Source of the DNA: Escherichia phage EI-SP-GF
DNA length: 64,000 nucleotides
Reading direction: 5' to 3' (one strand)
Sequence record: OR992645.1
This document shows positions 108 to 13,681 of this stretch, in pieces. Made by a program: the position numbers and the translations under genes. The notes below the pieces were generated by a model. The model did no database searches. It was not told the origin of the DNA and saw only the letters and a program-made list of their open reading frames with translations. Every line of letters starts with the position of its first letter. Positions within the stretch are counted from its first letter, which is position 1.

Positions 108-794
108 ATGGCAGAGATTAAGTCGGATGTCAACCACATCCACACTCTGCCAGATTTTGTTCAGGGAGGTCTTGATTACCTGCCTGGAGATTTTCTGGCT
201 GAGAAGGTTAATTTAGTCACATTCTTAACCGTGTACCTTAAAAGGTTGGAGGATGTTGATAAAATGCTGGTAGGCTTGGCTGAAGGAAGATTGCTTAACA
301 ATGCCAGCGGGAGATACCTTGACGAAGTTGGTAATCAACTCGGTATTCTTCGGAATGGGCTTTCAGATGCGGATTTTCGTGCTACCCTGGTTATTCAGCA
401 AGCAGCAGCATCAAGGGGTGGGACTCGCGAAGATGTCATCTCCACCTTGCGACAATTGTTCGGAAGAGACAATTTCGATACGTGGAAAGGTGACAATTTC
501 AGGTTTGACATAAACATTAGAAAAACTTGCTTTGACATATTGCAGTCTATCGACCAGATCTTAGATATGCTGCCATTGCCTTGTCATTTGCGTCTTACGG
601 AGTCGCAAGGGCAAGCTTTTGGTTTTGAAGGGGACTCTACAGCTCTCGGCTTCGGATCAGTGTGGGAAGAAAACCAGTTCGGGGTTGGTGGGCTGGCTAC
701 TTTGTTATATGTTCCTGACGTAAGACCTGATTGGGATACCACAACTATTTATTGTGAAAGTATTACAGTAAACGCAACTAGACAGGAGGGTTAA
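108..794 (+). CDS. hypothetical protein, tail/structural module (228 aa)
   Basis: ATG start with purine-rich RBS; stop overlaps the next start (TAATG); no motif recognised. Confidence 0.5.
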   Translation: MAEIKSDVNHIHTLPDFVQGGLDYLPGDFLAEKVNLVTFLTVYLKRLEDVDKMLVGLAEGRLLNNASGRYLDEVGNQLGILRNGLSDADFRATLVIQQAAASRGGTREDVISTLRQLFGRDNFDTWKGDNFRFDINIRKTCFDILQSIDQILDMLPLPCHLRLTESQGQAFGFEGDSTALGFGSVWEENQFGVGGLATLLYVPDVRPDWDTTTIYCESITVNATRQEG

Positions 795-2866
795 TGGCAA
801 CAGCTGTTTTTAAACCTTACCGTGATTACTCTACAATGGCTGCACGGTTTCATTACCGCACAGTTCAGGATACTGCAGTTCCGGGTAGGGATTATGATCA
901 TGTTGAGGGCGATGTAACTATCCCGGTTGGGGCAACCAGTATTGAGATCCCTGTAGAAATTGTTGACAAATTGCCAAACAGGTTGCCAAGAAGCTTCTTT
1001 ATGGAGTTTTCATCAAACTCCCAAGGGGTTATGATTGGAACACAAAGAGCGAAATGTACAATAGTTTCAGATGAGAATCTTGACAGAATATCTTGGGATA
1101 CCGTTGAGGAGAGAATGTTTCACCCAAGATACTGGGTTACAACCACACAGCAGACTGAAAGCACCTGTATTGTTGCGGATAATAACTGCTGTATTAACCG
1201 TTTAGTGTCAAGAACATATGGGGGCATGGCTGGGTGCATTTGGGAAACAGTTGACAAGTATGACCATTTCGGCATTGGATTTGATGATCACTACGAGATG
1301 AGAAACACCAAGCTTTGGTTCAGAATGTCAATAACCAATGCCAGCAACTTCTCCACCCCTGAAAAGATGATTATGACTGTAGACCTTGTTGATGGTACAA
1401 TCATCTATGTTCCTTTAGCTCAATATGCTGTCAGCATCTCAGAGGATAAGAATGTTGCAGAAATTCATATTGATTTCGAGGACTGCGTCGGGATGGACCA
1501 GAACAACAACATGATGGGTGTTGATCCTCGGCAGGTGAGAAGGATTCTAATACCACTTATGCCTAAAGATTGGGTAGGTAATAGCACAGACCCGAGAACG
1601 GAAAATGTAGAGTGTGAGTTGCGTCTAGATCTTCTTCAGCCGGACACAGGCTGGAAAATGATGCAACTTAACAATATTCAGGTGAAAGAACACGATGTTG
1701 GGATCTGCACAGCATATGACGATATGTGGAACGTATCCCCTTTAAGGGTGTTGAGCAATATCAAGCGTCTGGGCTATACAGGAACCATAAACCATTATGT
1801 TGGTATGAGCCATTATTATGACTACACATGGTCAGGAACCCAATGGTCTATAAACAAAACAGGAGCTCTAAACGCTGCAGCTTATAAATGGCATGATGAT
1901 TTTATGTACAATGCCAAACGACATGACTTCGACGTTATGCAGTCTGTAAGCTTTGAGCTTTATAGCGATGCCTGTCCGTTGGAATGGACCCAGAGAGACT
2001 GGAACGATAACTATGCTAAAACAGGCTATACGCCTTGTAGTTACCTCCTGTCTCCAACCATTGAAGAGGGCATGAATTTCCTTACTGCAGTATTTAAGAA
2101 TTTTGCATCAGCCGCTATGAGAAACAACCTGCCAGTGATTATGCAGATTGGTGAACCGTGGTGGTGGTTCAATACCGATACTCGTAAGCCTTGTATTTAT
2201 GACTACCCTACAAAGCAGGCGTTTTATGATGAGACTGGTGAATATGCACTAGACATTGGGACTATTGACGATCCTAAAACTGGCGGTGTTTATGACAAGT
2301 ATGTAGCATTTTGTCGTGGTAAGCTTGGCGCTCGTATTGCAGCCATTTCAAAGGCAATAAAAGCACACGCTGCATCGGCTCAGATGACAGCTTTACTGTT
2401 TTTCCCCACTATTATGGAAACCGAGCTTACGCAAAAACTGAACCTTGCTGACCAATATAAAAAGGAAGCAGGTGCTCTTGATTTCTTCTGCACTGAGTGC
2501 TACGATTGGGTGATGCAGGGAGGTATTGAAAAGGCAAAAGAGTCTGTAAACATACCTATCGTTAAGTTAGGTTGGAAACCGTCTGAAATACAATACCTTG
2601 CAGGGTTCGTTCCTAGCAAAGAGCTTGCTCCGGTATATGGCTACGACCCAACCAGGAATTACCAAGAATTTTTATGGAGATGTATTTGCGGAAACATGGC
2701 AACCATAGAGTATAGATACCCTGAGGTAAAACAGTATGTGTGGGCATACCCGCAAGTAATGTCTGACAGCATCACTGTTACCGCCAGAGATTCTACTGTT
2801 CTGCATATGGGGCAGGTTGCTCTGAAAGGGTATGTAGAAGATGTTGTTCCGCCAGACTTCTCATAA
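794..2866 (+). CDS. hypothetical structural protein (690 aa)
   Basis: Long ORF translationally coupled to neighbours inside the fibre module; no motif recognised. Confidence 0.5.
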   Translation: MATAVFKPYRDYSTMAARFHYRTVQDTAVPGRDYDHVEGDVTIPVGATSIEIPVEIVDKLPNRLPRSFFMEFSSNSQGVMIGTQRAKCTIVSDENLDRISWDTVEERMFHPRYWVTTTQQTESTCIVADNNCCINRLVSRTYGGMAGCIWETVDKYDHFGIGFDDHYEMRNTKLWFRMSITNASNFSTPEKMIMTVDLVDGTIIYVPLAQYAVSISEDKNVAEIHIDFEDCVGMDQNNNMMGVDPRQVRRILIPLMPKDWVGNSTDPRTENVECELRLDLLQPDTGWKMMQLNNIQVKEHDVGICTAYDDMWNVSPLRVLSNIKRLGYTGTINHYVGMSHYYDYTWSGTQWSINKTGALNAAAYKWHDDFMYNAKRHDFDVMQSVSFELYSDACPLEWTQRDWNDNYAKTGYTPCSYLLSPTIEEGMNFLTAVFKNFASAAMRNNLPVIMQIGEPWWWFNTDTRKPCIYDYPTKQAFYDETGEYALDIGTIDDPKTGGVYDKYVAFCRGKLGARIAAISKAIKAHAASAQMTALLFFPTIMETELTQKLNLADQYKKEAGALDFFCTECYDWVMQGGIEKAKESVNIPIVKLGWKPSEIQYLAGFVPSKELAPVYGYDPTRNYQEFLWRCICGNMATIEYRYPEVKQYVWAYPQVMSDSITVTARDSTVLHMGQVALKGYVEDVVPPDFS

Positions 2867-2878
2867 TCAGGAGATAAA

Positions 2879-3919
2879 ATGTCAAAACCTAGTTTTCCAT
2901 TAGAGATTTGGGCAGAGGAGGATCAGGTTCTGCCTAACACCCACAGACAGAACAGGCTACGCCCGATTGATGATTTGTGGAGAAAAGGTTGGGATCTTGG
3001 TCAAAAGCCGTCATGTGAAGAACTTAACTATATTTTCAATATGCTCGGGACTTGGGCAAAATATATTGCTGACGAGCAGATCCCCGCCCAAGAGGGCCGT
3101 TATCTGGTACGTGATAATAACCTGAGCGATCTTCTGAACATTCCTGTCGCCCGTAGAAACCTTGGGATTATTACTAAGGAAGAGGCAGACGCCAGGTATG
3201 TAAAAGTTACAGGAGATACAATGACAGGCCCCTTAGGTTTGCAGCGTATCAACTTTAAAGCTGCCGAGACAGATAAGGCTTGGATAGAGACAACTATTGG
3301 TCCAGATAAGACAACTCTCGACTTTGGGTTAAGTGATAACACTGGGGCGTTTGATGATGGTGGCACATCTACAGTAGATGCGTTTCGTTGGAGATTCCAG
3401 CCAACTCAGCCAGACATTAATCCAGAGTTCACTTTGATGTACCTGAACGCGATCACGGCTAACCGTGCGCTGTTGAAAGTGGTAGGTAATGTTGAAGTTG
3501 TCGATAACATGCGGTGTAACAACCTTACCATCAGCAGCACAGCAACATTCACCAACTGTAATGTGGCTAGTCAGTTGACAGCTGGGTCCGTATATGTTAA
3601 TGGCGGCGCAAGTTGTGACAGTATGGTTGTAAGAAGCCAGCATTGTGTTGTCGGTAACAGAAATGTGGTGCGCTCTGTGAATGGAGTGACGGCTAACGGT
3701 AACGGCGATGTAACGATCACCATCCCGCAGACAGGGGTACAGGATATCAGAATCGGTGCAAGACTTGTTGATGGTGTTTCTGAATCTCCAGTTCGCAACG
3801 GCTACGTTGTCACAGGTTGGCATTTTGGTGATAAAAAAGAGATGCGTGGTTCAACCTACTGGGCAGGACCTTTACAAAAACTTGTAAATGGTCAATGGAT
3901 CACTGTTAATTATGCGTAG
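2879..3919 (+). CDS. tail fibre protein, paralog A (346 aa)
   Basis: RBS GGAGATAAA before ATG; motifs YV.KTGDTMTGPL, LGLQRI, FRWRFQP, LNAITANRA; C-terminus KLVNGQWITVNYA shared with the 4932-5978 product. Confidence 0.6.
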   Translation: MSKPSFPLEIWAEEDQVLPNTHRQNRLRPIDDLWRKGWDLGQKPSCEELNYIFNMLGTWAKYIADEQIPAQEGRYLVRDNNLSDLLNIPVARRNLGIITKEEADARYVKVTGDTMTGPLGLQRINFKAAETDKAWIETTIGPDKTTLDFGLSDNTGAFDDGGTSTVDAFRWRFQPTQPDINPEFTLMYLNAITANRALLKVVGNVEVVDNMRCNNLTISSTATFTNCNVASQLTAGSVYVNGGASCDSMVVRSQHCVVGNRNVVRSVNGVTANGNGDVTITIPQTGVQDIRIGARLVDGVSESPVRNGYVVTGWHFGDKKEMRGSTYWAGPLQKLVNGQWITVNYA

Positions 3920-3933
3920 ATCGGAGGACTAGC

Positions 3934-4518
3934 ATGAAAATACTTCAAGAGTTTAAACTTTACCAACCGGGATCTGGCGAATACTACACCAACAAGGAGA
4001 CCAAGGAGCTGACTCCTCAGGAGGTTGAGGATTACACAGCATACACTGGATATTTTTTACGTAATGATGATGGCGATTGGTATGTGCAATCACGAACACT
4101 GCGACAAGAAAATCCCGGCTGTATCTTCTTACTTGTTGACGAGAAGGGTATTCTTAAGACATCTACAGAAGAACCTGATGCCTTGTGGCCTGCTCCAGGT
4201 CTTCGTGTGGTTATCGCCAAAAAAGAAGAGGTACCAGAAAACATTATGCTCCACCACGACGCTTTGCGTTTAGTTGGTGATGAATTTGTCACAGACAATG
4301 AATTCTTTGTTCAACAGGCAGAGGGTGTCATAGAGACAGAACTTGCTTGGGCTACTGCTAGAATTGGTGCCTATCAAGACATGATTGACCTTGAATACGA
4401 TCTTACTGATGACCAAAAACGCAACATCAGAGATTTGAAAATGTACAGGGTAAAACTTCTTGAAATAGATACATCTAAAGCCCCTGACATTTTCTTCCCG
4501 GAACGACCTACCCTCTAA
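3934..4518 (+). CDS. hypothetical protein downstream of fibre A (possible fibre accessory/assembly protein)
   Basis: 194-aa ORF with RBS GGAGGA; function inferred from position only. Confidence 0.4.
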   Translation: MKILQEFKLYQPGSGEYYTNKETKELTPQEVEDYTAYTGYFLRNDDGDWYVQSRTLRQENPGCIFLLVDEKGILKTSTEEPDALWPAPGLRVVIAKKEEVPENIMLHHDALRLVGDEFVTDNEFFVQQAEGVIETELAWATARIGAYQDMIDLEYDLTDDQKRNIRDLKMYRVKLLEIDTSKAPDIFFPERPTL

Positions 4519-4529
4519 GAGGAGGTGTT

Positions 4530-4844
4530 GTGGAGTTGGATTTGGCGGCATTGTACGGTATCTGCATGGGTACCGTTGTCCCGATCTGTGTATGGGCTTT
4601 CAACCAGTGGCACACCAAATGGAAAGGTATTTCCAAGAGGTTGGATGAGCTGGAGAAAGACCTCATTTTAGTGAAAAATAGCATGGTTACAAAAGATAGA
4701 CTTGATTCCATTATCGAGACCCGGTTAAGTAAGCTAGAGGCCGATATTAACGACCTTAAGCAAGATGTCAGGACAGATGTCTCCGGTATCCGAGCTGATG
4801 TACAAAAGATTTTGCACATGCTTGTAGAGCATAGTAAAAGGTAA
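4530..4844 (+). CDS. small membrane-anchored coiled-coil protein
   Basis: GTG start after RBS AAGAGGAGG; hydrophobic N-terminal segment followed by a charged heptad-like region. Confidence 0.4.
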   Translation: MELDLAALYGICMGTVVPICVWAFNQWHTKWKGISKRLDELEKDLILVKNSMVTKDRLDSIIETRLSKLEADINDLKQDVRTDVSGIRADVQKILHMLVEHSKR

Positions 4845-4931
4845 ACAAAGGTAAGAACGGTAAGGATGCCGTTCTTGCATTTTGTTCTCTAAAGTGTTAA
4901 AATAGTCCTTAAGGAATTTTCTCAGGAGAAT

Positions 4932-5978
4932 GTGATGACTAAACCAGTTATCCCTCTCGATATTTGGGCCAATCAGGATGTTGTGCTTGAAAATACAGGA
5001 GAGTTGAACAAGTCTCAACCGAACAAAGAAGAGAGATTGAAAGGTTGGGATATGACACAAAGGATAGCATGTGAAGTTGTTAACTTTGAACTCCACATGC
5101 TCTCTGCGTGGCTAAAGCATTTAACAGAAGATGTTGTCCCTGGATGGGATAATAGATTCTTAAGGGTCACTAATAATCTGGCAGACGTTCCAGACAAAGC
5201 TGCTGCACGTAAAGTCCTCAATGTATACTCGCCTGAAGAAATGGATGACCTGTATGTTGACAAGACTGGGGACACAATGACCCAGACTCAAACTTTGGGT
5301 CTTCAAAGAATCGAGTTTGCATCCGCGTCAACAGACAATGCAGCGATATACACCACCATAACTCCAGACAAAACGATGATGGATTTCTGGATTATGGACA
5401 ACATCGGCGGCGCTGACGGCACAGACCTTGATGATCCTTCTCACCAAATAGACGGTTTCCGTTGGAGATTTCAACCTTCTGGTGGGCAGCCTGTGTTTTC
5501 GGCTATGAAGCTTAATGCTATAACTGCCAACCGTGCAAGACTGGCTATCCAAGGGAATCTTGAATGCAATGATGCAAAAAGCTCCTCTGCAAATGCTAAT
5601 GCGGTAACGATACCAAGAGCCACTGTTAATGGACAACAATCCTGCGGCAGCGCTCAAATAGGTGGAAGAGTGGATTGTAACGATAACACCGCCAGGGGTC
5701 AATATGCAACAGTTGGTGGGAGAAACGTGGTCCGCAGGGTAAATGGTAGTAGCGCAGATAGCAGTGGTAACCTTACTATTCCTATGCCTAGTAGGGGTGT
5801 TGAAGATGTAAGGATAGCAAACCGTTTCAGAACCACCTACAGAGAATCAAGAGTATACCCTGGGCATGTAATGTGCTCCGGCAATTACGCCTATAAACAC
5901 CCGTATCAAGGCGACTATTGGACTGGTGCCATTCAAAAATTTGTAAACGGTCAATGGATCACTATATCTTATGCTTAA
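4932..5978 (+). CDS. tail fibre protein, paralog B (348 aa)
   Basis: Colinear similarity to the 2879-3919 product (DKTGDTMT, LGLQRI, FRWRFQP, LNAITANRA, C-terminal KFVNGQWITISYA); start may be the ATG at 4935. Confidence 0.6.
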   Translation: MMTKPVIPLDIWANQDVVLENTGELNKSQPNKEERLKGWDMTQRIACEVVNFELHMLSAWLKHLTEDVVPGWDNRFLRVTNNLADVPDKAAARKVLNVYSPEEMDDLYVDKTGDTMTQTQTLGLQRIEFASASTDNAAIYTTITPDKTMMDFWIMDNIGGADGTDLDDPSHQIDGFRWRFQPSGGQPVFSAMKLNAITANRARLAIQGNLECNDAKSSSANANAVTIPRATVNGQQSCGSAQIGGRVDCNDNTARGQYATVGGRNVVRRVNGSSADSSGNLTIPMPSRGVEDVRIANRFRTTYRESRVYPGHVMCSGNYAYKHPYQGDYWTGAIQKFVNGQWITISYA

Positions 5979-5987
5979 AGAGGGTAA

Positions 5988-6254
5988 ATGAAATTAACTC
6001 AGTTTTTATGGGGGTTGGTTGCGGCATCGGATGACCCTACGAAAGTGTCCCAATCTAAGCTATGGTCAAACATAGGCATGGCAGTGATGACTGGGGTGTT
6101 TATTCATATGGGGTACAATGATACGCTTCCTGAATGGTATGCGTGGATATACGCACCTTCAGTAGCCTGCCCCCAGCTTATTAGCAAATTCATCTCGCTC
6201 CGGTGGGGTTGCCAGCACCCTGACCACGTTAAAAACGAAGAGCAAAAAGCTTAA
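5988..6254 (+). CDS. small hypothetical protein downstream of fibre B
   Basis: 88-aa ORF with RBS AGAGGG; hydrophobic stretch. Confidence 0.4.
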   Translation: MKLTQFLWGLVAASDDPTKVSQSKLWSNIGMAVMTGVFIHMGYNDTLPEWYAWIYAPSVACPQLISKFISLRWGCQHPDHVKNEEQKA

Positions 6255-6263
6255 GGAGAAATC

Positions 6264-8009
6264 ATGGCGCAAGACATGACAAGCTTCGAGCAGGCGGTAG
6301 ATCAAGTAATTGTTGATTCTGAACGTTTGCACTTGGTTGTCAACGGTAACGCTGTGGATGAAGTTGTCGTAGAGGATGGGACCACTATCCCTACGGTACG
6401 AAAAGCCATGCTTGACAACCTTTATTTTAAAACGCCACCGATCCCTTGGGCGTATGGTGCATCCACAACAGTTTTTAACCAGCTGTATGAGTTTAAAGGA
6501 GATACAGGCCCTCAGTGGTGGTACGCTCCAGCAGCGTCAAAATCTAACCCGGTTAGGATGCCAGCAGATCCTTCACAATCTCCGAACTGGAGATTATACA
6601 CCGACTCTGCAGTAATGGCAAAATACTACGCAAAACTTAACAGCCCAAGGTTCGAAGGTGACCCGAGAGTACCTACACCTCCAATGGATGATAAGTCCGA
6701 GTCTATAGCAAACACAGAGTTTGTTGTTGACTATGTGGATAGCATATTTAAAGCCATGGAGGGGATGAAAGTTACTGTAGGATCTTTGGTGGTAAAAGGT
6801 CTTACAGAACTTGCTAACACTATAGTTGGGGGTACCCTTACCTTACACGGACCTGTTAATGGAGCAGATTCTACTGCACGCTTCAGGAACCTAATCCTTA
6901 CGGCAAATACTTCTACACTGACTTTTGCGTGGAGCGATCCTAAGCATGCAGACTGGAGAAGCACAGAGCTGCAACCTCATGAAGTATCAACTCACAGAGT
7001 TATAGCTGACACTATAACTTCTGGGAAACCAGTGGCTAATAACAACGATGTGCATTTTGATGGTCTAGGTAATAACTTTTTTGACTACGTGTACATTCGC
7101 GGTAATGCCATGAAGGCAGCCACCGAACCGACATTGCAGGTTGATGGGACCACCAGGGTTAAGAACCTTGAGGTGACAGGCACCGTTACAGGGATAACCT
7201 ACTCTGTAGATGGCACCATGATCTACCCTAGCTATATTGAAAGCACGGGAGATGCACTGATCAATGGAGATTTAGAGGTTGGCGGATCTATAGTCATTCG
7301 TGGCACAGCATCTGTCCAGAACATATCTTTAAATACTCTGAGGGTGAATGAGCGTGCCACTTTTGAAGGAGAAGGGCTTACAGCCAACAAAGGTGTAATT
7401 ACCGAGCTGACAACCACCACTTTAACTGCAACAACTGCAAACTCTGAAAACTGCAACGTTACCAGAAACTTGCAGGTAAATGGAGATGTTAGTTTAAACG
7501 CAGCAGGGACTGGCACCACCTACCTTCACAACCTTGAAATATCAGGTACAGTGACTGGGTGGCTGCCAGACTTCTCTAATGTCAACTTTGTCTGTAATGG
7601 CATTAACTCCAGTGGCAAGATAACCACCTCTCAAGAAATTGAAGCTGGTAAAACTATTACTGCCCCTGCTTTCCATGCAGGGAAGGTGGAGTTTGACTTA
7701 GAGGAGGCTGACGCATCTAGTGGGACATGGACACCTAACGGGCAGGCCAATATGTATGTTGTCCACGCGAAAGGGGACTTTACAATAGGGCAATGGCCTG
7801 GAACATCGGCTGAAGATAAACCTTACCCGTTCACTGCAATCATCTATGTCATTCAGGATGCTGTAGGCCACAACGTGACTTTACACGATAAATATGCCAT
7901 ACTGTCGGCTACTCCTGTTATTAACAACAAAGCCAACAGTGTCACCTTGCTACAATTGACATATTGTGGTGTTGGTGATATTGTGGATGTGGTTATTGCA
8001 CAACGTTAA
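6264..8009 (+). CDS. tail fibre / tail spike-like protein (581 aa)
   Basis: RBS AAGGAGA; repetitive G/T/V/N-rich beta-type segments (NLEVTGTVTG, TLTATTANSEN) typical of fibre shafts; terminator-like hairpin downstream. Confidence 0.5.
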   Translation: MAQDMTSFEQAVDQVIVDSERLHLVVNGNAVDEVVVEDGTTIPTVRKAMLDNLYFKTPPIPWAYGASTTVFNQLYEFKGDTGPQWWYAPAASKSNPVRMPADPSQSPNWRLYTDSAVMAKYYAKLNSPRFEGDPRVPTPPMDDKSESIANTEFVVDYVDSIFKAMEGMKVTVGSLVVKGLTELANTIVGGTLTLHGPVNGADSTARFRNLILTANTSTLTFAWSDPKHADWRSTELQPHEVSTHRVIADTITSGKPVANNNDVHFDGLGNNFFDYVYIRGNAMKAATEPTLQVDGTTRVKNLEVTGTVTGITYSVDGTMIYPSYIESTGDALINGDLEVGGSIVIRGTASVQNISLNTLRVNERATFEGEGLTANKGVITELTTTTLTATTANSENCNVTRNLQVNGDVSLNAAGTGTTYLHNLEISGTVTGWLPDFSNVNFVCNGINSSGKITTSQEIEAGKTITAPAFHAGKVEFDLEEADASSGTWTPNGQANMYVVHAKGDFTIGQWPGTSAEDKPYPFTAIIYVIQDAVGHNVTLHDKYAILSATPVINNKANSVTLLQLTYCGVGDIVDVVIAQR

Positions 8010-8057
8010 TATATCTGACCGCTCCTGACGGGGCGGTTTTCTTATCTGGAGAACACA

Positions 8058-8834
8058 ATGCTTCCAATCCCTTTGCTAAAACTTGGTCGTCATTTCCTCG
8101 ATAAGAGGGGTGGAGTTAAGGAACTTGCTGTTCTGTCATACCCAATAGACAACAGTGACGGTACAAGCACTACAGTAGCCTATGTAAATAGCTTAGCTAT
8201 ACTTTTTGACGATGGTCAGCTTAATATTACTGGCTATAACAAGTTCGGGGAGTGTCGCACTGGGGATCGTAACCCTATAAACTACCCGAGCGAGACGGCC
8301 TGGAATGTTGATCATGTGTGGAGAGCAGACCGTGCGTTTGTGATCCGGACTTTTGATAACCAGTTTTTCTACATCGGCTGCACTGCAGGTCTTATCGGAT
8401 CCACTGCGGCAGGTGGTAACGATGTTTGCGTAAACGAGTGGACACCTCTTCCGGAACAGATTGTTAAAGGATTGCACCTTGACACCCACCCAGAGCGCCT
8501 TATTGAGGTAATGGGAGGTATTAACAACACTGTCTGGGTTATTGCAGAGGCAGAAGGTACTGGCATACTGAACCTGTATGGGTCTGGTAACAACACCTAC
8601 GGATCTTTACATGTAGATAAAAACCAGCATGCAACTCCTGTAAAGATTGGTGAAACATCAGAAAATCCTGAAACAGGCCCTTGGAAAAACCCAAGTATCA
8701 ACTGCGAGGTGCATGACAACTCTGTTATTTTCGGTGGGCCTAGAGGTTTTTGGATTGCTGGATACGACTTTCTGAGAAACAACAGTAGAAACGACCTTGT
8801 TTGGCCCCTGCTCAGATTACTCGCAACGATTTGA
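8058..8834 (+). CDS. hypothetical tail-associated protein (258 aa)
   Basis: ATG with RBS TGGAGAA; 3' end overlaps the 5' region of the next long ORF in another frame. Confidence 0.4.
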   Translation: MLPIPLLKLGRHFLDKRGGVKELAVLSYPIDNSDGTSTTVAYVNSLAILFDDGQLNITGYNKFGECRTGDRNPINYPSETAWNVDHVWRADRAFVIRTFDNQFFYIGCTAGLIGSTAAGGNDVCVNEWTPLPEQIVKGLHLDTHPERLIEVMGGINNTVWVIAEAEGTGILNLYGSGNNTYGSLHVDKNQHATPVKIGETSENPETGPWKNPSINCEVHDNSVIFGGPRGFWIAGYDFLRNNSRNDLVWPLLRLLATI

Positions 8835-8869
8835 AAGGCATTCCTGCAGATGAGGAGTGGAAAGGATTC

Positions 8870-11800
8870 ATGTGTGGTCCGAACGGGGCGATAATTGCAA
8901 CGCAGAGGATGCACAAGCCTAATGATCAGCAACTTGTTAACGTATTCTACGGGCAAGATGTCTGGGGAGATGATACATGGCGTTCCTTAAATATTACCTA
9001 CACCCATGAAGTAATAATGGCTCGTGGGTACGGAACAAGTGGCATTTTCTTCAATAATGGTACTAAGCAGTATCGCGGATTCTCTCGCAACCTGTGCAAC
9101 GATATTGGAGCACAATCTGCAAACAATAATCCTCGCGCCAATTTTATCCATTATCAAGCTCTTGCTACAGCCAAGTATGTTGAGCAACGACTGCCAGTTA
9201 GCTGGACAGAGAGTGTTTACTTCCAGGGTATTCATAGAGAAGGTTTTTTAGGGACCTTTACCGTTGTTAATGGCAAACTTTGGTGGTCAGGCATCCCAAG
9301 GGGAAGTTTTGCAGGATCTAATAACCTGTTTGGCGGCAGACTTAACAGCCAGGGGTTCACAGAGGTTCCTGAGAATTGGTATAAAAATGTCCCAGTAGAT
9401 AGTTGGGATATTGATGATATTTTTGACGTTAACGGTGTTAGCAGTGTTAGCAATATTTACATCGGTGACACGGTCAAGATGAAATTGAAGCCTCAACCAG
9501 AGGGGGCCACGTTCATTATTGACAAGATTGAACTGGTAAATGCTGCAGGCACGGTTGTTACAGATGCAAATTACCAATTCTCCACCAACTGGAACCACGG
9601 CGGGGCCAACGAGGTTGTTGTTACTCAGTATAACAGAAATGTTAACAGACGCGGTCTGTACTCTGTAAAAATAACCTATCATGACAAGCATGGCACGGGC
9701 AGAACTCACACAACAAGGACTTTGAACTGGAACACTATAGTTCCTGCGTATCCGTCTGATGGTAAATGGCACACTGTAGGCAGAAACAAACAGTTCCATG
9801 TTAACGATACTGTGTACTTTGGGCTTAACGCTGCTCAGCCAGCTCCAGAAAGCGATACAGCGTATATGGTTCGGCTGCACAGGCAAGATGCTGGGTCTGT
9901 TACCTACGATGTGACCCAAGAGATCTACAATCAGAGACGCTCCACGTATGACAATATTGTGAAAACACAAGCCTTGTGGGAGTTCAACCCTAACGGCAAA
10001 GGTGGTAAAATGTTGCAGGTTAACGAGCAAAACGGAACATCGTTAACTGTCCACGAACACCCAGACCCTTGGCCTGACCCTGGTAAACCTAACTCAGGTG
10101 CTCGCACACTGCAAGTTGTCAGTCATGATGTAGGCTATTTTGGGATACGTTGGGAGGCCACAGTAAAATATGCCGATGGGACAACAAACAACATAGGGAT
10201 TACGCTTGGTGGCACTAGTGAGAGTAACTCGCTGAAAATTGCCTACACTCCTAGAGGTATCTCTATTGACAACATGGATATAGTCCGTAACGGTTACGGA
10301 GATGTAAACATCAAAGTTACTCTTGGTGAGCATCTTGGCGGAGAAAGGATCATTATGTATGCCTTTGATCATGACCCTCGAACCAACGGAACTTATGCAA
10401 ATCAGGCCTGGAGTTACCTGATAAGTGCACCTGAGCCGAATACTAAAGAATTCTACTACGGTATGAAGCGAGATGTGTGCAAGAAAACAGGAACACACGA
10501 CTGGATTGCTATCTGTGTTAAAGATGAGAGAACAGCTTGGGATGAGCCTGTTAACCGCTGGTTCATAGGTATTCCCACCAGAAGTGATAAATACGTTGAA
10601 GAATATATTGTATGTATGGGCGGCACCAACCTCAACATGTGTTGGAACGAGGACGCAAACAAATATTCTGATTATGACTATATGAGGGACTACTCTTGTA
10701 ATCAATGGTTCAACCAATCCGGGTATGCTAATAGACAGTCAAGGGTAAACCCTGCAATCTTCACAGATACGCAGGTTTTCTTGACAAAACAGGCCAACGA
10801 GGTTCAGACCTTCAAGAACAACTATGATCCTAACAAGTGGTTCTACAACTGTTCCGGAGCAATATTCTGGGGGCCTGGTGAACTGCCTGATAGTGGTTCT
10901 TGCTTCGAGGCTGCAACCTATGGCAGTGACTATATTATGGGGCAGGTCAAGAAGTACAAGATGATTCCAGGACCTGAAACTTTAGGTAATGCTGTTGACC
11001 CGTACATAAATTTCGCAGCTATACATGCTAATATGGATGGAGAGAGATATCCGTTTGTTGTTCCGTTAACTTGGGGGTACAAACGTGTCGTGATGATTAT
11101 TAAATGCGATCTGATCGGGAAGCAAGTTCTTGCAGAAAATGGAACATCCACACACCCTTTTGAAGTTGCTCTGCACTACCAGTTTGCAGACTCACCATAT
11201 GCAGGGGATAAAAGAATATCCGACACAGACTCTAAGCGCTGTAAGAAAGTTTTACTTGGAGCCGGGTGGTGGTGGTACGAGTTTGATTTGACAGATAAGT
11301 TCACAGATGATACCAAAACTCTCACAGGTATCCGTCTGGACCTTGGTGAGAACATGCATAAAAGTGTTTGTGATGGTACCTACGGTGACCCTACGGTATA
11401 TCTAAAGTATGTTTCTCTTGAGCATCGCGAAGAGGATGTTTACGGTCCAAAACTGAGATTGTTTGGCGCATGGATTGCCAAAGACAGAGTAGGTATGGGT
11501 AAGAAGGTGAGAGGCTTCTTGATAGATGTAGGGACAGAGGACATGCTGGTTAATGCAGTATGGCCTGAATTACCCGGAACTCAGTGGAACAACTCTGCCA
11601 AATCTATAAACTGGTACAATATTCACAGAGCTATGTGGACCACTAACTGCTACTTGTGGAGAGAGCTTAACGATCAGGCCTTTGGCTTTAGTAACGGCAG
11701 AAGGATGGCGATCATTTGCTGGACAACATTGCAAAGATGTTATGACCATGACTATGAGATTGGTGGTAGGGCATGGAAAGATATCAGGGACAGAGTTATA

Positions 11801-13681
11801 TACAATTTTGCAGACGATAATGGTGGCGGGGCATATAACTTTGGCACAAGCCGACTTATCCATTTGAACGGATCCTCAGCCTACAAGAAAGAGGGTTACT
11901 CTGGGTCTATGATTGAGTGGGGTCTGGTGAAAGATGCTCGCGTATTGATGGGTCAACAACTTGCTGCTGCAATAGGACCTAGCGCAGTGCAGTCGGTTAA
12001 ACCAGCGTGGTTCGATATCCCAATATGGTCATCTGGAACACCAGGAACTGCGGCAATTAACCCTACCACCGGAGATTTGGAAATCTCTTGGGAGGACTTA
12101 AAGCAGGTCGGTGGCTGGGATAAGACTGGGTACCAGGTGCAATGGTGGAGATCTGACGGATCGTTAGCGGCTGATGAGTTTGTTAAGGACAATTTCTACA
12201 CCATGTCCTCTGCAAAAGCACAACAATTGTTTGGTCAGGCCACCCCGTCAACGATCACTATGTCCATGTGCTGTAAAGACAACAGGACGGGAGCTCTGGG
12301 ACCAAGGGTTGCTAAAGTTTTCTCAGGTATTAAATGGAATCTCCCTGTTCAAAGTGTTTCATGGAAGCAAATAGGTGATAACAAGCTGCTGGTTACTCCT
12401 GCCTGTCAGTTCAACGCAACTCTTAACGTTGATCCTGCTGTTGCGGCAAACTCAGCTAAAGCTTCTGACTTCTCTGTGTCTAACACTGCTATGGCAGATG
12501 TGAGGAAGATTGACACACTGAACGCCAGAATTACCTGTAAAAACACTTATGGCACATTCCAGATCATCAACAACTTCACAGATGCTGATTCTAAGGTAGT
12601 AAGGACAGCAAGCCAGACTATGCAGTTGGGCACTCTGGCATACTCTGCCCTGATCACTGAACAATCTCCTACTCTTCAGGGTGGGGGTGTTGGTAAGTTG
12701 ATCACAACACCTGTGTGGAAGCCAAATGAGTGGGTTGTGTTTGATTTGACTGTAGACTTCTCCAGTGACAATAACTGGACATGGGTAAGGAATTGCTTGC
12801 CACAGTTGATGGGCGGTCCAAATTCCGTTAGTGATAGCCACGACTCTACCGATCCGAGCGTGTTCCAGGTGGGGAAAACTCACCCAGAGACTGGGGAAAC
12901 GTTGCCTGACAGGAAGTATGCTTTAGTTTGCATCTCCAACGGCAAGGCAGATATAACCTTCTCGGGGATACACTCGTATAACGGCACTTACAACTTCTCT
13001 AAAAAGTACAGCCTCAAGGCAGGTAACATTATAGACGAAGTTGGTCCGTTATATAACCCAGGTAACGGTATTGGGATTGTAACTGGTATTCTTCCTATGC
13101 AGGAGCCTTCTATAACCCCAGCCAACGTGCCTGGTATCAGAAAAACTTGGGAAAGTAGCAATACCAATATTGCAACAGTGGATGCTACCACAGGACTGGT
13201 AACATTTAAGGCTACCGGGAATGTCACCATAAGGTTTGTAGTTACAGATGATGCAGGCCGCAAAACGTCTTCAACATCGTTTACTGTCAAACAGATGGCA
13301 CCTCAGTGGTTTATTTGGGAAGGAAATCCTCTTGACGGGGCTTACCCTAGACCTGCAGGAACGTCTAATATGAGGGTCTTTACCGGTCCAGTCATGGACA
13401 ATCCAACCACAACCACCAACCCTGCATTTTTTGGTGCTTACATACCTGAAATTATTGGCCTACCAAGGAACCAAATACAATTGCTTTTCGGGGCAGGCGT
13501 TGATGGTCTAGCCACTTTCGGGTACAGTGACAACATTGATGCAGCCAGAAGCTCGGGTTGGATTGGATTTAAGTTCCAGTGGAACCCTGGTGGTAGAACA
13601 TTAGGTCTTGCAAGTGTAGGTGTTATGCTGCCTGGCAACCAGCAATACCATCTCGAAGCTTATACAAACTTCCCTAGTTAA
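8870..13681 (+). CDS. large tail fibre/host-specificity protein with Big_2-like Ig domain (about 1,600 aa)
   Basis: Long ORF; first ATG at 8870 with AAAGGA RBS (frame opens at a TTG at 8801); C-terminal segment NIATVDATTGLVTFKATGNVTIRFVVTDDAG resembles bacterial Ig-like group 2; followed by a strong hairpin terminator. Confidence 0.55.
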   Translation: MCGPNGAIIATQRMHKPNDQQLVNVFYGQDVWGDDTWRSLNITYTHEVIMARGYGTSGIFFNNGTKQYRGFSRNLCNDIGAQSANNNPRANFIHYQALATAKYVEQRLPVSWTESVYFQGIHREGFLGTFTVVNGKLWWSGIPRGSFAGSNNLFGGRLNSQGFTEVPENWYKNVPVDSWDIDDIFDVNGVSSVSNIYIGDTVKMKLKPQPEGATFIIDKIELVNAAGTVVTDANYQFSTNWNHGGANEVVVTQYNRNVNRRGLYSVKITYHDKHGTGRTHTTRTLNWNTIVPAYPSDGKWHTVGRNKQFHVNDTVYFGLNAAQPAPESDTAYMVRLHRQDAGSVTYDVTQEIYNQRRSTYDNIVKTQALWEFNPNGKGGKMLQVNEQNGTSLTVHEHPDPWPDPGKPNSGARTLQVVSHDVGYFGIRWEATVKYADGTTNNIGITLGGTSESNSLKIAYTPRGISIDNMDIVRNGYGDVNIKVTLGEHLGGERIIMYAFDHDPRTNGTYANQAWSYLISAPEPNTKEFYYGMKRDVCKKTGTHDWIAICVKDERTAWDEPVNRWFIGIPTRSDKYVEEYIVCMGGTNLNMCWNEDANKYSDYDYMRDYSCNQWFNQSGYANRQSRVNPAIFTDTQVFLTKQANEVQTFKNNYDPNKWFYNCSGAIFWGPGELPDSGSCFEAATYGSDYIMGQVKKYKMIPGPETLGNAVDPYINFAAIHANMDGERYPFVVPLTWGYKRVVMIIKCDLIGKQVLAENGTSTHPFEVALHYQFADSPYAGDKRISDTDSKRCKKVLLGAGWWWYEFDLTDKFTDDTKTLTGIRLDLGENMHKSVCDGTYGDPTVYLKYVSLEHREEDVYGPKLRLFGAWIAKDRVGMGKKVRGFLIDVGTEDMLVNAVWPELPGTQWNNSAKSINWYNIHRAMWTTNCYLWRELNDQAFGFSNGRRMAIICWTTLQRCYDHDYEIGGRAWKDIRDRVIYNFADDNGGGAYNFGTSRLIHLNGSSAYKKEGYSGSMIEWGLVKDARVLMGQQLAAAIGPSAVQSVKPAWFDIPIWSSGTPGTAAINPTTGDLEISWEDLKQVGGWDKTGYQVQWWRSDGSLAADEFVKDNFYTMSSAKAQQLFGQATPSTITMSMCCKDNRTGALGPRVAKVFSGIKWNLPVQSVSWKQIGDNKLLVTPACQFNATLNVDPAVAANSAKASDFSVSNTAMADVRKIDTLNARITCKNTYGTFQIINNFTDADSKVVRTASQTMQLGTLAYSALITEQSPTLQGGGVGKLITTPVWKPNEWVVFDLTVDFSSDNNWTWVRNCLPQLMGGPNSVSDSHDSTDPSVFQVGKTHPETGETLPDRKYALVCISNGKADITFSGIHSYNGTYNFSKKYSLKAGNIIDEVGPLYNPGNGIGIVTGILPMQEPSITPANVPGIRKTWESSNTNIATVDATTGLVTFKATGNVTIRFVVTDDAGRKTSSTSFTVKQMAPQWFIWEGNPLDGAYPRPAGTSNMRVFTGPVMDNPTTTTNPAFFGAYIPEIIGLPRNQIQLLFGAGVDGLATFGYSDNIDAARSSGWIGFKFQWNPGGRTLGLASVGVMLPGNQQYHLEAYTNFPS

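Follow-up and report, generated by a model that had tools for sequence, protein, structure and literature searches.

The short-tail-fibre locus of Escherichia phage EI-SP-GF (OR992645.1), at positions 2,879 to 6,254 of the 64,000-nucleotide stretch analysed here (the window), carries two diverged copies of a short tail fibre (STF) gene, here STF1 and STF2. It is probably the short-tail-fibre module of a Vequintavirus, working with two fibres of the Mu gpS type and a single chaperone, Tfa, of the Mu gpU type. The window belongs to that genus of rV5-like Escherichia coli myoviruses: its segment 2500-8500 is 99.7% identical in nucleotides to vB_EcoM-ECP26, and at least 80% of the same segment is covered by 110 phage records, nearly all of them at 90% identity or more. 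The two-fibre locus is a real and already described feature of Vequintavirus. Kropinski 2013 (PMC3606486) reported gp33 and gp30 of rV5 as tail-fibre paralogues with 42.3% identity and raised the idea of two lipopolysaccharide (LPS) chemotypes, and Maffei 2021 (PMC8594841) described the two as paralogous short tail fibres with homology to Mu GpS/GpU, found no considerable allelic variation in them, and gave phi92-like phages and Phapecoctavirus as single-copy. Because these two studies published it, the core finding is known, and the rV5 locus gp33/gp32/gp30 is the same locus, with nothing essential different. The modest additions made here concern the history of the insertion, the presence of only one chaperone, a separate putative promoter for STF2 and its faster evolution, a deeper lineage (C) in which both fibres carry like tips, and a gap in the proteomic record.

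STF1 (2879..3919, + strand, 346 residues; rV5 gp33) and STF2 (4935..5978, + strand, 347 residues; rV5 gp30) align from end to end with 153 of 356 positions identical (43%, E 8e-95), in agreement with an earlier note, made from the sequence alone, that had called the two products colinear paralogues. Each matches the PHROGs family phrog_4465, "tail fiber protein", over its full length (STF1 residues 1-346 against profile positions 1-342 of 342, E 4.5e-171; STF2 residues 1-347 against the same positions, E 1.8e-163). LGLQRI, FRWRFQP, LNAITANRA and the C-terminal NGQWIT(V/I)xYA, which that note listed as shared, are indeed found in both products. The motif DKTGDTMT is shared only in its core, TGDTMT, since STF1 reads VKVTGDTMT. 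Likewise, the near-identical C-terminus is there, but its IQKxVNGxWxT motif is family-wide, being found too in Mu gpS, the phiTE short fibre and every single-copy relative; only the xYA ending is specific to the pair. At the DNA level the two genes are saturated; their longest exact common stretch is 15 nucleotides and their best repeat is 63 nucleotides at 76% identity. The start of STF2 also needs a small correction. It had been placed at a GTG at 4932, and the ATG at 4935 is most likely the true start because an AGGAG lies 7 nucleotides upstream of it and all GenBank records use it. From this ATG, STF2 begins with MTKP, parallel to the MSKP of STF1.

Both fibres share one layout, consisting of an N-terminal docking domain, a collar motif and a Mu gpS-like C-terminal tip; in STF1 these parts are an N-terminal baseplate-docking domain, the collar NNLSDLxxxxxARRNLG, a beta-rich shaft and the gpS-like tip. 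Residues 1-108 of STF1 match the phiTE short fibre 9cuy in phmmer searches (E 1.5e-19), as does the N-terminus of STF2 (E 2.3e-8), and a profile of the family matches both 9cuy (E 2.6e-33) and Pakpunavirus P7-1 gp92, 9zd7 (E 5.7e-39). At the other end, residues 286-343 of STF1 match Mu gpS 5yvq (phmmer, E 1.4e-6). STF2 alone gave no phmmer match to 5yvq, and the family profile matched it at E 6.8e-14 and the S/S' chimera 8ju3 at E 6.5e-7. AlphaFold2 monomer models of the two proteins have a similar secondary-structure layout, and in Foldseek searches 5yvq_A is the only significant fold match in the Protein Data Bank (PDB) for either of them (STF1, predicted local distance difference test (pLDDT) 72, E 2.9e-10; STF2, pLDDT 70, E 2.3e-8; probability 1.00 in both). 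STF2 is 40% identical to STF1 in the N-terminal docking domain and 34% identical in tip residues 286-320, the most diverged segment between the copies in the lineage of the window. STF1 is nearer to the outgroup single fibre (48%/45%) than STF2 is (38%/39%).

Characterized relatives place these parts in context. phiTE gp236 (9CUY) and P7-1 gp92 (9ZD7) have a homologous N-terminal docking domain, an NLADVxxKAxARxNLG collar, which is repeated in P7-1 gp92, and the terminal IQKxVNGxW. However, both are single-copy, and phiTE is flagellotropic and LPS-independent. phi92 gp147, the single short fibre of Justusliebigvirus, is a syntenic orthologue, found in the order wedge, baseplate protein, STF, Tfa. 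The phi92-like fibre shares the N-terminal domain and has a type-A tip that is 56-60% identical to the STF1 tip; it differs in being single-copy and in having a central shaft of unrelated sequence (10-23% identity). In STF1, the last ~58 residues (287-344; window 3737-3910) are 57-59% identical to the tips of phi92-like phages and also to those of 52-kb myoviruses that are unrelated (brorfarstad, swi3, birk and others), and close relatives such as TH18 and GAP31 bear different fibre tips. As far as sequence comparison goes, the gpS-like tip shows exchange as a module together with its chaperone.

Mu itself is the closest well-studied parallel to the fibre and chaperone pair. Homology to Mu gpS (gpS/gpU, 5YVQ) extends over the receptor-binding C-terminal domain and over most of the shaft, a Caudo_TAP chaperone gene lies directly downstream, and Mu resembles this locus in having two fibre versions per genome and an LPS-core target. 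Mu differs in that one version is expressed at a time through Gin-mediated inversion, with a constant N-terminal part and a chaperone for each version (S/U and S'/U'). The window instead has two complete genes in direct orientation, each with its own ribosome-binding site (RBS), one chaperone gene, and no flanking inverted repeats.

The single chaperone is where my reading departs most from the earlier note, which described a duplicated cassette with a distinct small gene behind each fibre. Only one Tfa gene is present, at 3934..4518 (+ strand, 194 residues; rV5 gp32, homologue of Mu gpU). It is recognised by PF02413, Caudo_TAP (E 1e-11 over residues 121-192, the C-terminal 72; 45.5 bits against a cut-off of 22.1), and by phrog_136 (E 9.7e-37). 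A tblastn search of the 64-kb window with 10 Tfa proteins found no second Tfa gene. The gene behind STF2, at 5988..6254 (+ strand, 88 residues; rV5 gp29), belongs to phrog_1322, "membrane protein" (E 2.7e-32), is also found in single-fibre relatives, and has a product with no BLASTP match to Tfa at E ≤ 0.01. A Caudo_TAP gene therefore directly follows STF1 and not STF2, whose next gene is the phrog_1322 member. All four open reading frames (ORFs) that had been listed are present at the positions given for them on the + strand, but a third small one between Tfa and STF2 had been overlooked. It lies at 4530..4844 (+ strand; phrog_5345, E 1.1e-48; rV5 gp31) and encodes a 104-residue protein with one N-terminal transmembrane (TM) segment (residues 5-23, Kyte-Doolittle) and a coiled-coil-like remainder. 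The locus thus comprises five successive + strand ORFs, separated by 9-15 nucleotides except for 90 nucleotides before STF2.

Tracing this gene order through related phages shows what was added. The single-fibre relatives compared were Avunavirus Av-05, the unclassified TH18, the Seunavirus phages SalP219, GAP31 and FENT2, Mydovirus BIS47 and one metagenomic contig (L019), and their order is STF, Tfa, 104-aa gene, 157-aa gene, ~88-aa gene and ~580-aa fibre gene (the ~88-aa gene is annotated shorter in BIS47). STF1 in the window, like the fibre gene of 7 single-fibre relatives, lies between the baseplate wedge genes upstream and Tfa downstream; STF2 is placed ~1 kb further downstream, beyond Tfa and the 104-aa gene. 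The order of STF1 and then Tfa is shown to be ancestral, being common to single-fibre relatives. Orthology of the two small genes was established by BLASTP against Av-05 and SalP219, the other relatives having genes of the same size in the same positions. The 104-aa gene has orthologues after the Tfa gene in Av-05 (E 8e-20) and SalP219 (E 7e-22), and the 88-aa gene has orthologues in the same slot before the ~580-aa fibre gene (E 3e-30 and 4e-32, respectively). Because these orthologues hold the same place in phages with one fibre, the 88-aa gene is older than STF2, and both small genes are shown to be ancestral and unrelated to the fibre duplication.

STF2 in Vequintavirus occupies the exact slot of the relatives' 157-aa gene, which encodes a multi-pass membrane protein (Pfam PF26221, Phage_phiTE_239; Av-05, L003 6949-7422; SalP219, L004 6997-7470) and which Vequintavirus has lost. 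The 104-aa and 157-aa genes overlap in the relatives, and Vequintavirus has a 90-nucleotide spacer before STF2 instead. What was added is therefore a fibre gene alone, in place of the 157-aa gene, which leaves one chaperone gene for two fibres. That one Tfa would fold both fibres is supported by the C-terminal ending kept in both of them and by the N-terminal domain of Tfa, which co-varies with the type of fibre tip across relatives.

Several observations concern the small genes themselves. The 104-, 157- and 88-aa genes form a conserved trio inside the tail-fibre module of the Vequintavirinae examined and are labelled as membrane proteins in sequence records or PHROGs, and a 19-residue hydrophobicity scan of the 88-aa protein found no strong TM segment (maximum 1.05). 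In lineage C the 88-aa gene is lengthened to 117-118 residues by a repetitive acidic tail. The ECP26 and YN3 GenBank records leave this conserved gene, which is intact in both, unannotated. Because T4 gene t lies beside gene 38, I also asked whether the small membrane proteins could act as holins or spanins. There is no support for such a role, the holin proposed in the rV5 paper is gp129, and I rejected the idea.

The spacer before STF2 contains two regulatory candidates. A terminator-like hairpin at 4851..4878 (+ strand; 12 pairs followed by ATTTTGTT), found by consensus scan and folding, stands at the end of the STF1-Tfa-104 block; its folding energy is -20.5 kcal/mol in the window and -17.5 in rV5, and it is weak in two deeper lineages, B and C (the lineage of the window is referred to as A). 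A promoter-like element, TTGCAT-N17-TAAAAT with a TGn before the -10 hexamer, follows at 4873..4903 (+ strand). Across lineages A, B and C neither hexamer changes, although the 17-nucleotide spacer between them does, and the element was listed by Kropinski 2013 (PMC3606486, Table S4C) as the putative late promoter P030 of rV5. The window holds 2 matches to the pattern TGNTAAAATA where 1.15 would be expected, so the motif is not enriched and support for a promoter comes from conservation across lineages and not from motif counts. STF2 is thus shown to have a conserved promoter-like element, a putative promoter of its own.

This element and a terminator at 8017-8038, after the 581-aa fibre gene, would bracket a possible transcription unit of STF2, the 88-aa gene and the 581-aa gene. 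Such a unit could mean that STF2 is a component or adaptor of a lateral fibre assembled with the downstream 581-aa fibre rather than a baseplate short fibre, and the N-terminus of STF2 is indeed more diverged from the phiTE wedge-binding domain than that of STF1 (E 2.3e-8 against 1.5e-19). However, the 581-aa fibre gene (orthologues PF26208/PF26209) is conserved in all the single-fibre relatives, which have no STF2, and STF2 retains the complete short-fibre layout together with a gpS-like tip. I therefore regard a role in the lateral fibre as improbable.

Both fibre genes are intact and are shown to be under strong purifying selection. Across 8 Vequintavirus genomes the ratio of nonsynonymous to synonymous substitution rates (dN/dS) is 0.025 for STF1, 0.052 for STF2, 0.041 for Tfa, 0.028 for the 104-aa gene and 0.007 for the 88-aa gene, so that purifying selection on these two small genes is very strong. 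All 8 copies of each fibre are free of stops and frameshifts, and within the genus residues 1-70 of STF1 have a dN of 0. From these rates and from the identities seen in lineages B and C, STF2 evolves roughly twice as fast as STF1. This faster rate, and a fragmented STF1 in the record of phage Alma, might be taken to mean that one copy is a decaying or non-functional duplicate, an outcome that the earlier note had put forward as a refutation of its own claim should one copy prove to be a pseudogene in related genomes. Alma has the sole fragmented copy found in relatives, and its Tfa, 104-aa and 581-aa genes are fragmented as well; since most neighbouring genes are thus affected, sequencing errors are the probable cause. 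The low dN/dS of both genes, the lack of stops and frameshifts, and the retention of both copies in lineages at ~75% nucleotide identity or less leave the decay of either copy with scarcely any probability.

A search of 5.8 billion proteins, followed by retrieval of contigs, recovered two deeper two-fibre lineages on 5 metagenomic contigs. Lineage B (L016-L018) has amino acid identities to the window of 88% for STF1, 77.5% for STF2 and 78% for Tfa, and lineage C (L020 and L021) has 72%, 52% and 47%, respectively, with a chaperone of 204-208 residues. The fibre pair is therefore old, as the two-fibre architecture is kept in both. In all three lineages the copies are 37-40% identical to one another over residues 1-70, and between A and C this segment is 77% kept in STF1 and 61% in STF2. 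The tips behave differently: over residues 286-320, STF1 and STF2 are 34% identical in lineage A and 89% identical in lineage C. The last ~25 residues are alike in both copies and end in a lineage-specific manner, with xYA in A and B and QTL in C.

The two tips of lineage C (L020 3913-4953 and 6001-7065; L021 116-1156 and 2190-3254) are 85-89% identical in amino acids, with synonymous sites saturated. I considered recent gene conversion between the copies as an explanation and rejected it because synonymous sites are saturated everywhere, including these tips (proportion of synonymous differences, pS, 0.5-0.9). It is selection, and not recent gene conversion, that by the substitution pattern would have kept the same tip in both fibres of lineage C. 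A closer donor for STF2 was not found either: in a tblastn search of 50,697 phage records, matches of at least 93% occurred only in 116 Vequintavirus records, with the next best at 43% or less, and the search of 5.8 billion proteins yielded only relatives of the Vequintavirus type.

The same comparisons bear on whether the pair could be a substrate for a programmed or frequent recombinational host-range switch, either by inversion as in the S/S' genes of the Mu G segment or by swapping of cassettes. The earlier note had raised this possibility, and it gains some appeal from the homology of the fibres to Mu gpS/gpU, whose genes switch by inversion, and from the 3' ends being the most similar DNA of the two genes (the 63 nucleotides at 76% identity). 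However, the copies lie in direct orientation and each is complete, with its own N-terminus, RBS and start. The copies share little identical DNA (15 nucleotides at most in the window; 15-29 nucleotides for the longest stretches recorded). In 2700-6400 the best inverted repeat, 19 nucleotides long with 79% complementarity, is not one that flanks the genes, so the layout of a Mu G segment, with inverted C-terminal segments, flanking inverted repeats and a common N-terminus, is not what is found here. The arrangement is invariant in the 8 Vequintavirus genomes and in the 5 metagenomic contigs of the two deeper lineages, and even the like tips of lineage C, with their saturated synonymous sites, speak against recent conversion. 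Finally, the ORFs of 1-13.7 kb encode baseplate, fibre or small membrane proteins, and no invertase of the Gin/Cin/Hin family is among them (judged by Pfam, PHROGs and the annotation in GenBank; no search for recombinases covered the remainder of the window). A switch of this kind is thus highly improbable.

How, then, might two fibres work in one particle? STF1 and STF2 would be made late in infection and are probably co-expressed. By homology to phi92 gp147, the phiTE short fibre and Mu gpS, each paralogue is expected to form a homotrimer, with the N-terminal ~90 residues docking on the baseplate wedge and the C-terminal gpS-like knob binding LPS core, which would bring about irreversible adsorption and trigger contraction. 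Cryo-EM (cryo-electron microscopy) of phiTE places short-fibre residues 3-92 on baseplate wedge protein 1. In phi92, six gp147 trimers ("fiber III") lie under wedge protein gp145, reorient on contraction and have been proposed to bind irreversibly. T4 gp12 is a functional analogue, a baseplate-attached trimer that binds LPS core irreversibly; for the fibres discussed here, such binding, with the triggering of contraction, is what the waaC/waaG dependence of Vequintavirinae and phi92 fiber III would suggest. The chaperone systems differ, with gp57A in T4 and a gpU-type Tfa here. No T4 gp12 chain is among the PDB sequence, profile or fold matches of STF1 and STF2. HHpred matches to the gp12 structure 1PDI were reported by Kropinski 2013 (PMC3606486).

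The pattern of divergence suggests that the two copies probably sit at different docking sites and do not compete for one, because each N-terminus is conserved from lineage to lineage although the two have only ~40% identity. Similarly, since residues 286-320 differ most, the tips probably recognise different LPS-core structures within the genus. With both diverged fibres intact and selectively maintained, the dual receptor specificity put forward in the earlier note is a reasonable hypothesis.

An alternative is competition between the paralogues for one shared set of six wedge positions, so that mixed virions or varying ratios of the two fibres provide bet-hedging or redundancy. A single wedge protein offers six short-fibre positions in phi92 and in phiTE, the phiTE-type N-terminal domain is recognisable in both paralogues, and the separate promoter of STF2 could set the ratio of the fibres. 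On the other hand, the N-termini are 37-40% identical between the copies in three lineages and each is conserved between A and C (77% and 61%), with no nonsynonymous change in residues 1-70 of STF1 within the genus, which suggests two distinct constrained partners. I consider competition for shared positions unlikely.

My more specific proposal, which I put forward tentatively and which may well prove wrong, is that STF1 occupies the canonical wedge site and STF2 a second, lineage-specific site through its diverged N-terminus, with a shared chaperone and a promoter of its own. In the rV5 lineage the STF2 tip would then have been re-specified, giving each particle two LPS-core specificities. 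Because both tips are alike in lineage C, the duplication would at first have paid off through avidity or geometry and not through specificity.

Several points weigh against the module working as proposed here with two fibre types on one baseplate. Only six short-fibre positions per baseplate are seen in phi92 and phiTE, which makes a second docking site hypothetical, and a literature search found no Vequintavirus baseplate structure. According to the text of the rV5 paper, "total phage proteomics" picked up gp30, gp32 and gp33 (Kropinski 2013, PMC3606486), yet the deposited mass spectrometry (MS) table of rV5 (Additional file 5, Table S5, DTASelect; 19 proteins) has no entry of 346, 347 or 194 residues, and gp34 (690 residues) is present in it. 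The literature search found no virion proteome of another Vequintavirus, bringing up only a paper on the Septuagintavirus W70, and no host-range mutants mapping to the two fibre genes. With lineage C tips ~85-89% identical, dual specificity is not a universal reason for having two copies. Furthermore, the uniform waaC/waaG dependence and little allelic variation of the BASEL phages fit a single shared terminal receptor equally well (Maffei 2021, PMC8594841). The monomer models are only moderate (pLDDT 70-72; predicted template modelling score, pTM, 0.38). As to origin, a neighbour-joining tree, with 66-70% bootstrap support, does not separate duplication of STF2 within the lineage from its acquisition from an unsampled relative.

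The wider locus is that of rV5, in which gp34 (690 residues) and gp28 (581 residues) flank the module and the order gp34-gp33-gp32-gp31-gp30-gp29-gp28 is the order of the window. The five products between them have the same lengths in both phages (346, 194, 104, 347 and 88 residues), with per-gene nucleotide identities of 92-97% and amino acid identities of 98.8% for STF1 and 96.3% for STF2. The STF2 of the window is the allele of the ECP26 type, which has ~96% amino acid identity to the common allele. In BASEL records both fibre genes are labelled "short tail fiber protein" and the 194-aa gene is labelled "tail fiber chaperone". A further 16-21 GenBank records (MG0656xx) that are named "Campylobacter phage", with C. 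jejuni as host, are ~95% identical to this locus, which suggests that they are mislabelled or contaminant genomes.

Upstream of STF1, the 690-aa protein (window 794-2866) matches the TIM-barrel and the N-terminal domains of the N4 gp65 type ("non-contractile tail sheath protein") together with Calx-beta (PF23845, 6.7e-80). Its gene occurs in Vequintavirus and Avunavirus and is missing from the Seunavirus, Mydovirus and phi92-like loci, and BASEL labels the protein as a glycan-deacetylase lateral fibre. Downstream of the module, a large lateral tail-fibre gene with Ig-like/intimin domains (window 8058-13681) is broken into ORFs of 258 (8058-8834) and 1626 residues (8801-13681) by a 1-nucleotide deletion in a C-run near 8805-8807, when compared with RudolfGeigy and ECP26. 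One unbroken ORF makes up the gene in rV5 (gp27, 1878 residues) and in RudolfGeigy, and the frameshift is either a sequencing error or a real mutation, inactivating or phase-variable.

At this point, the proteomic support for both fibres in the virion, although often cited, is not visible in the deposited MS table. This matters because rV5-like phages are among the commonest E. coli myovirus isolates and have uses in typing, in biocontrol and in therapy cocktails, and the identity of the proteins that make the irreversible contact is important for the prediction and engineering of their host range.

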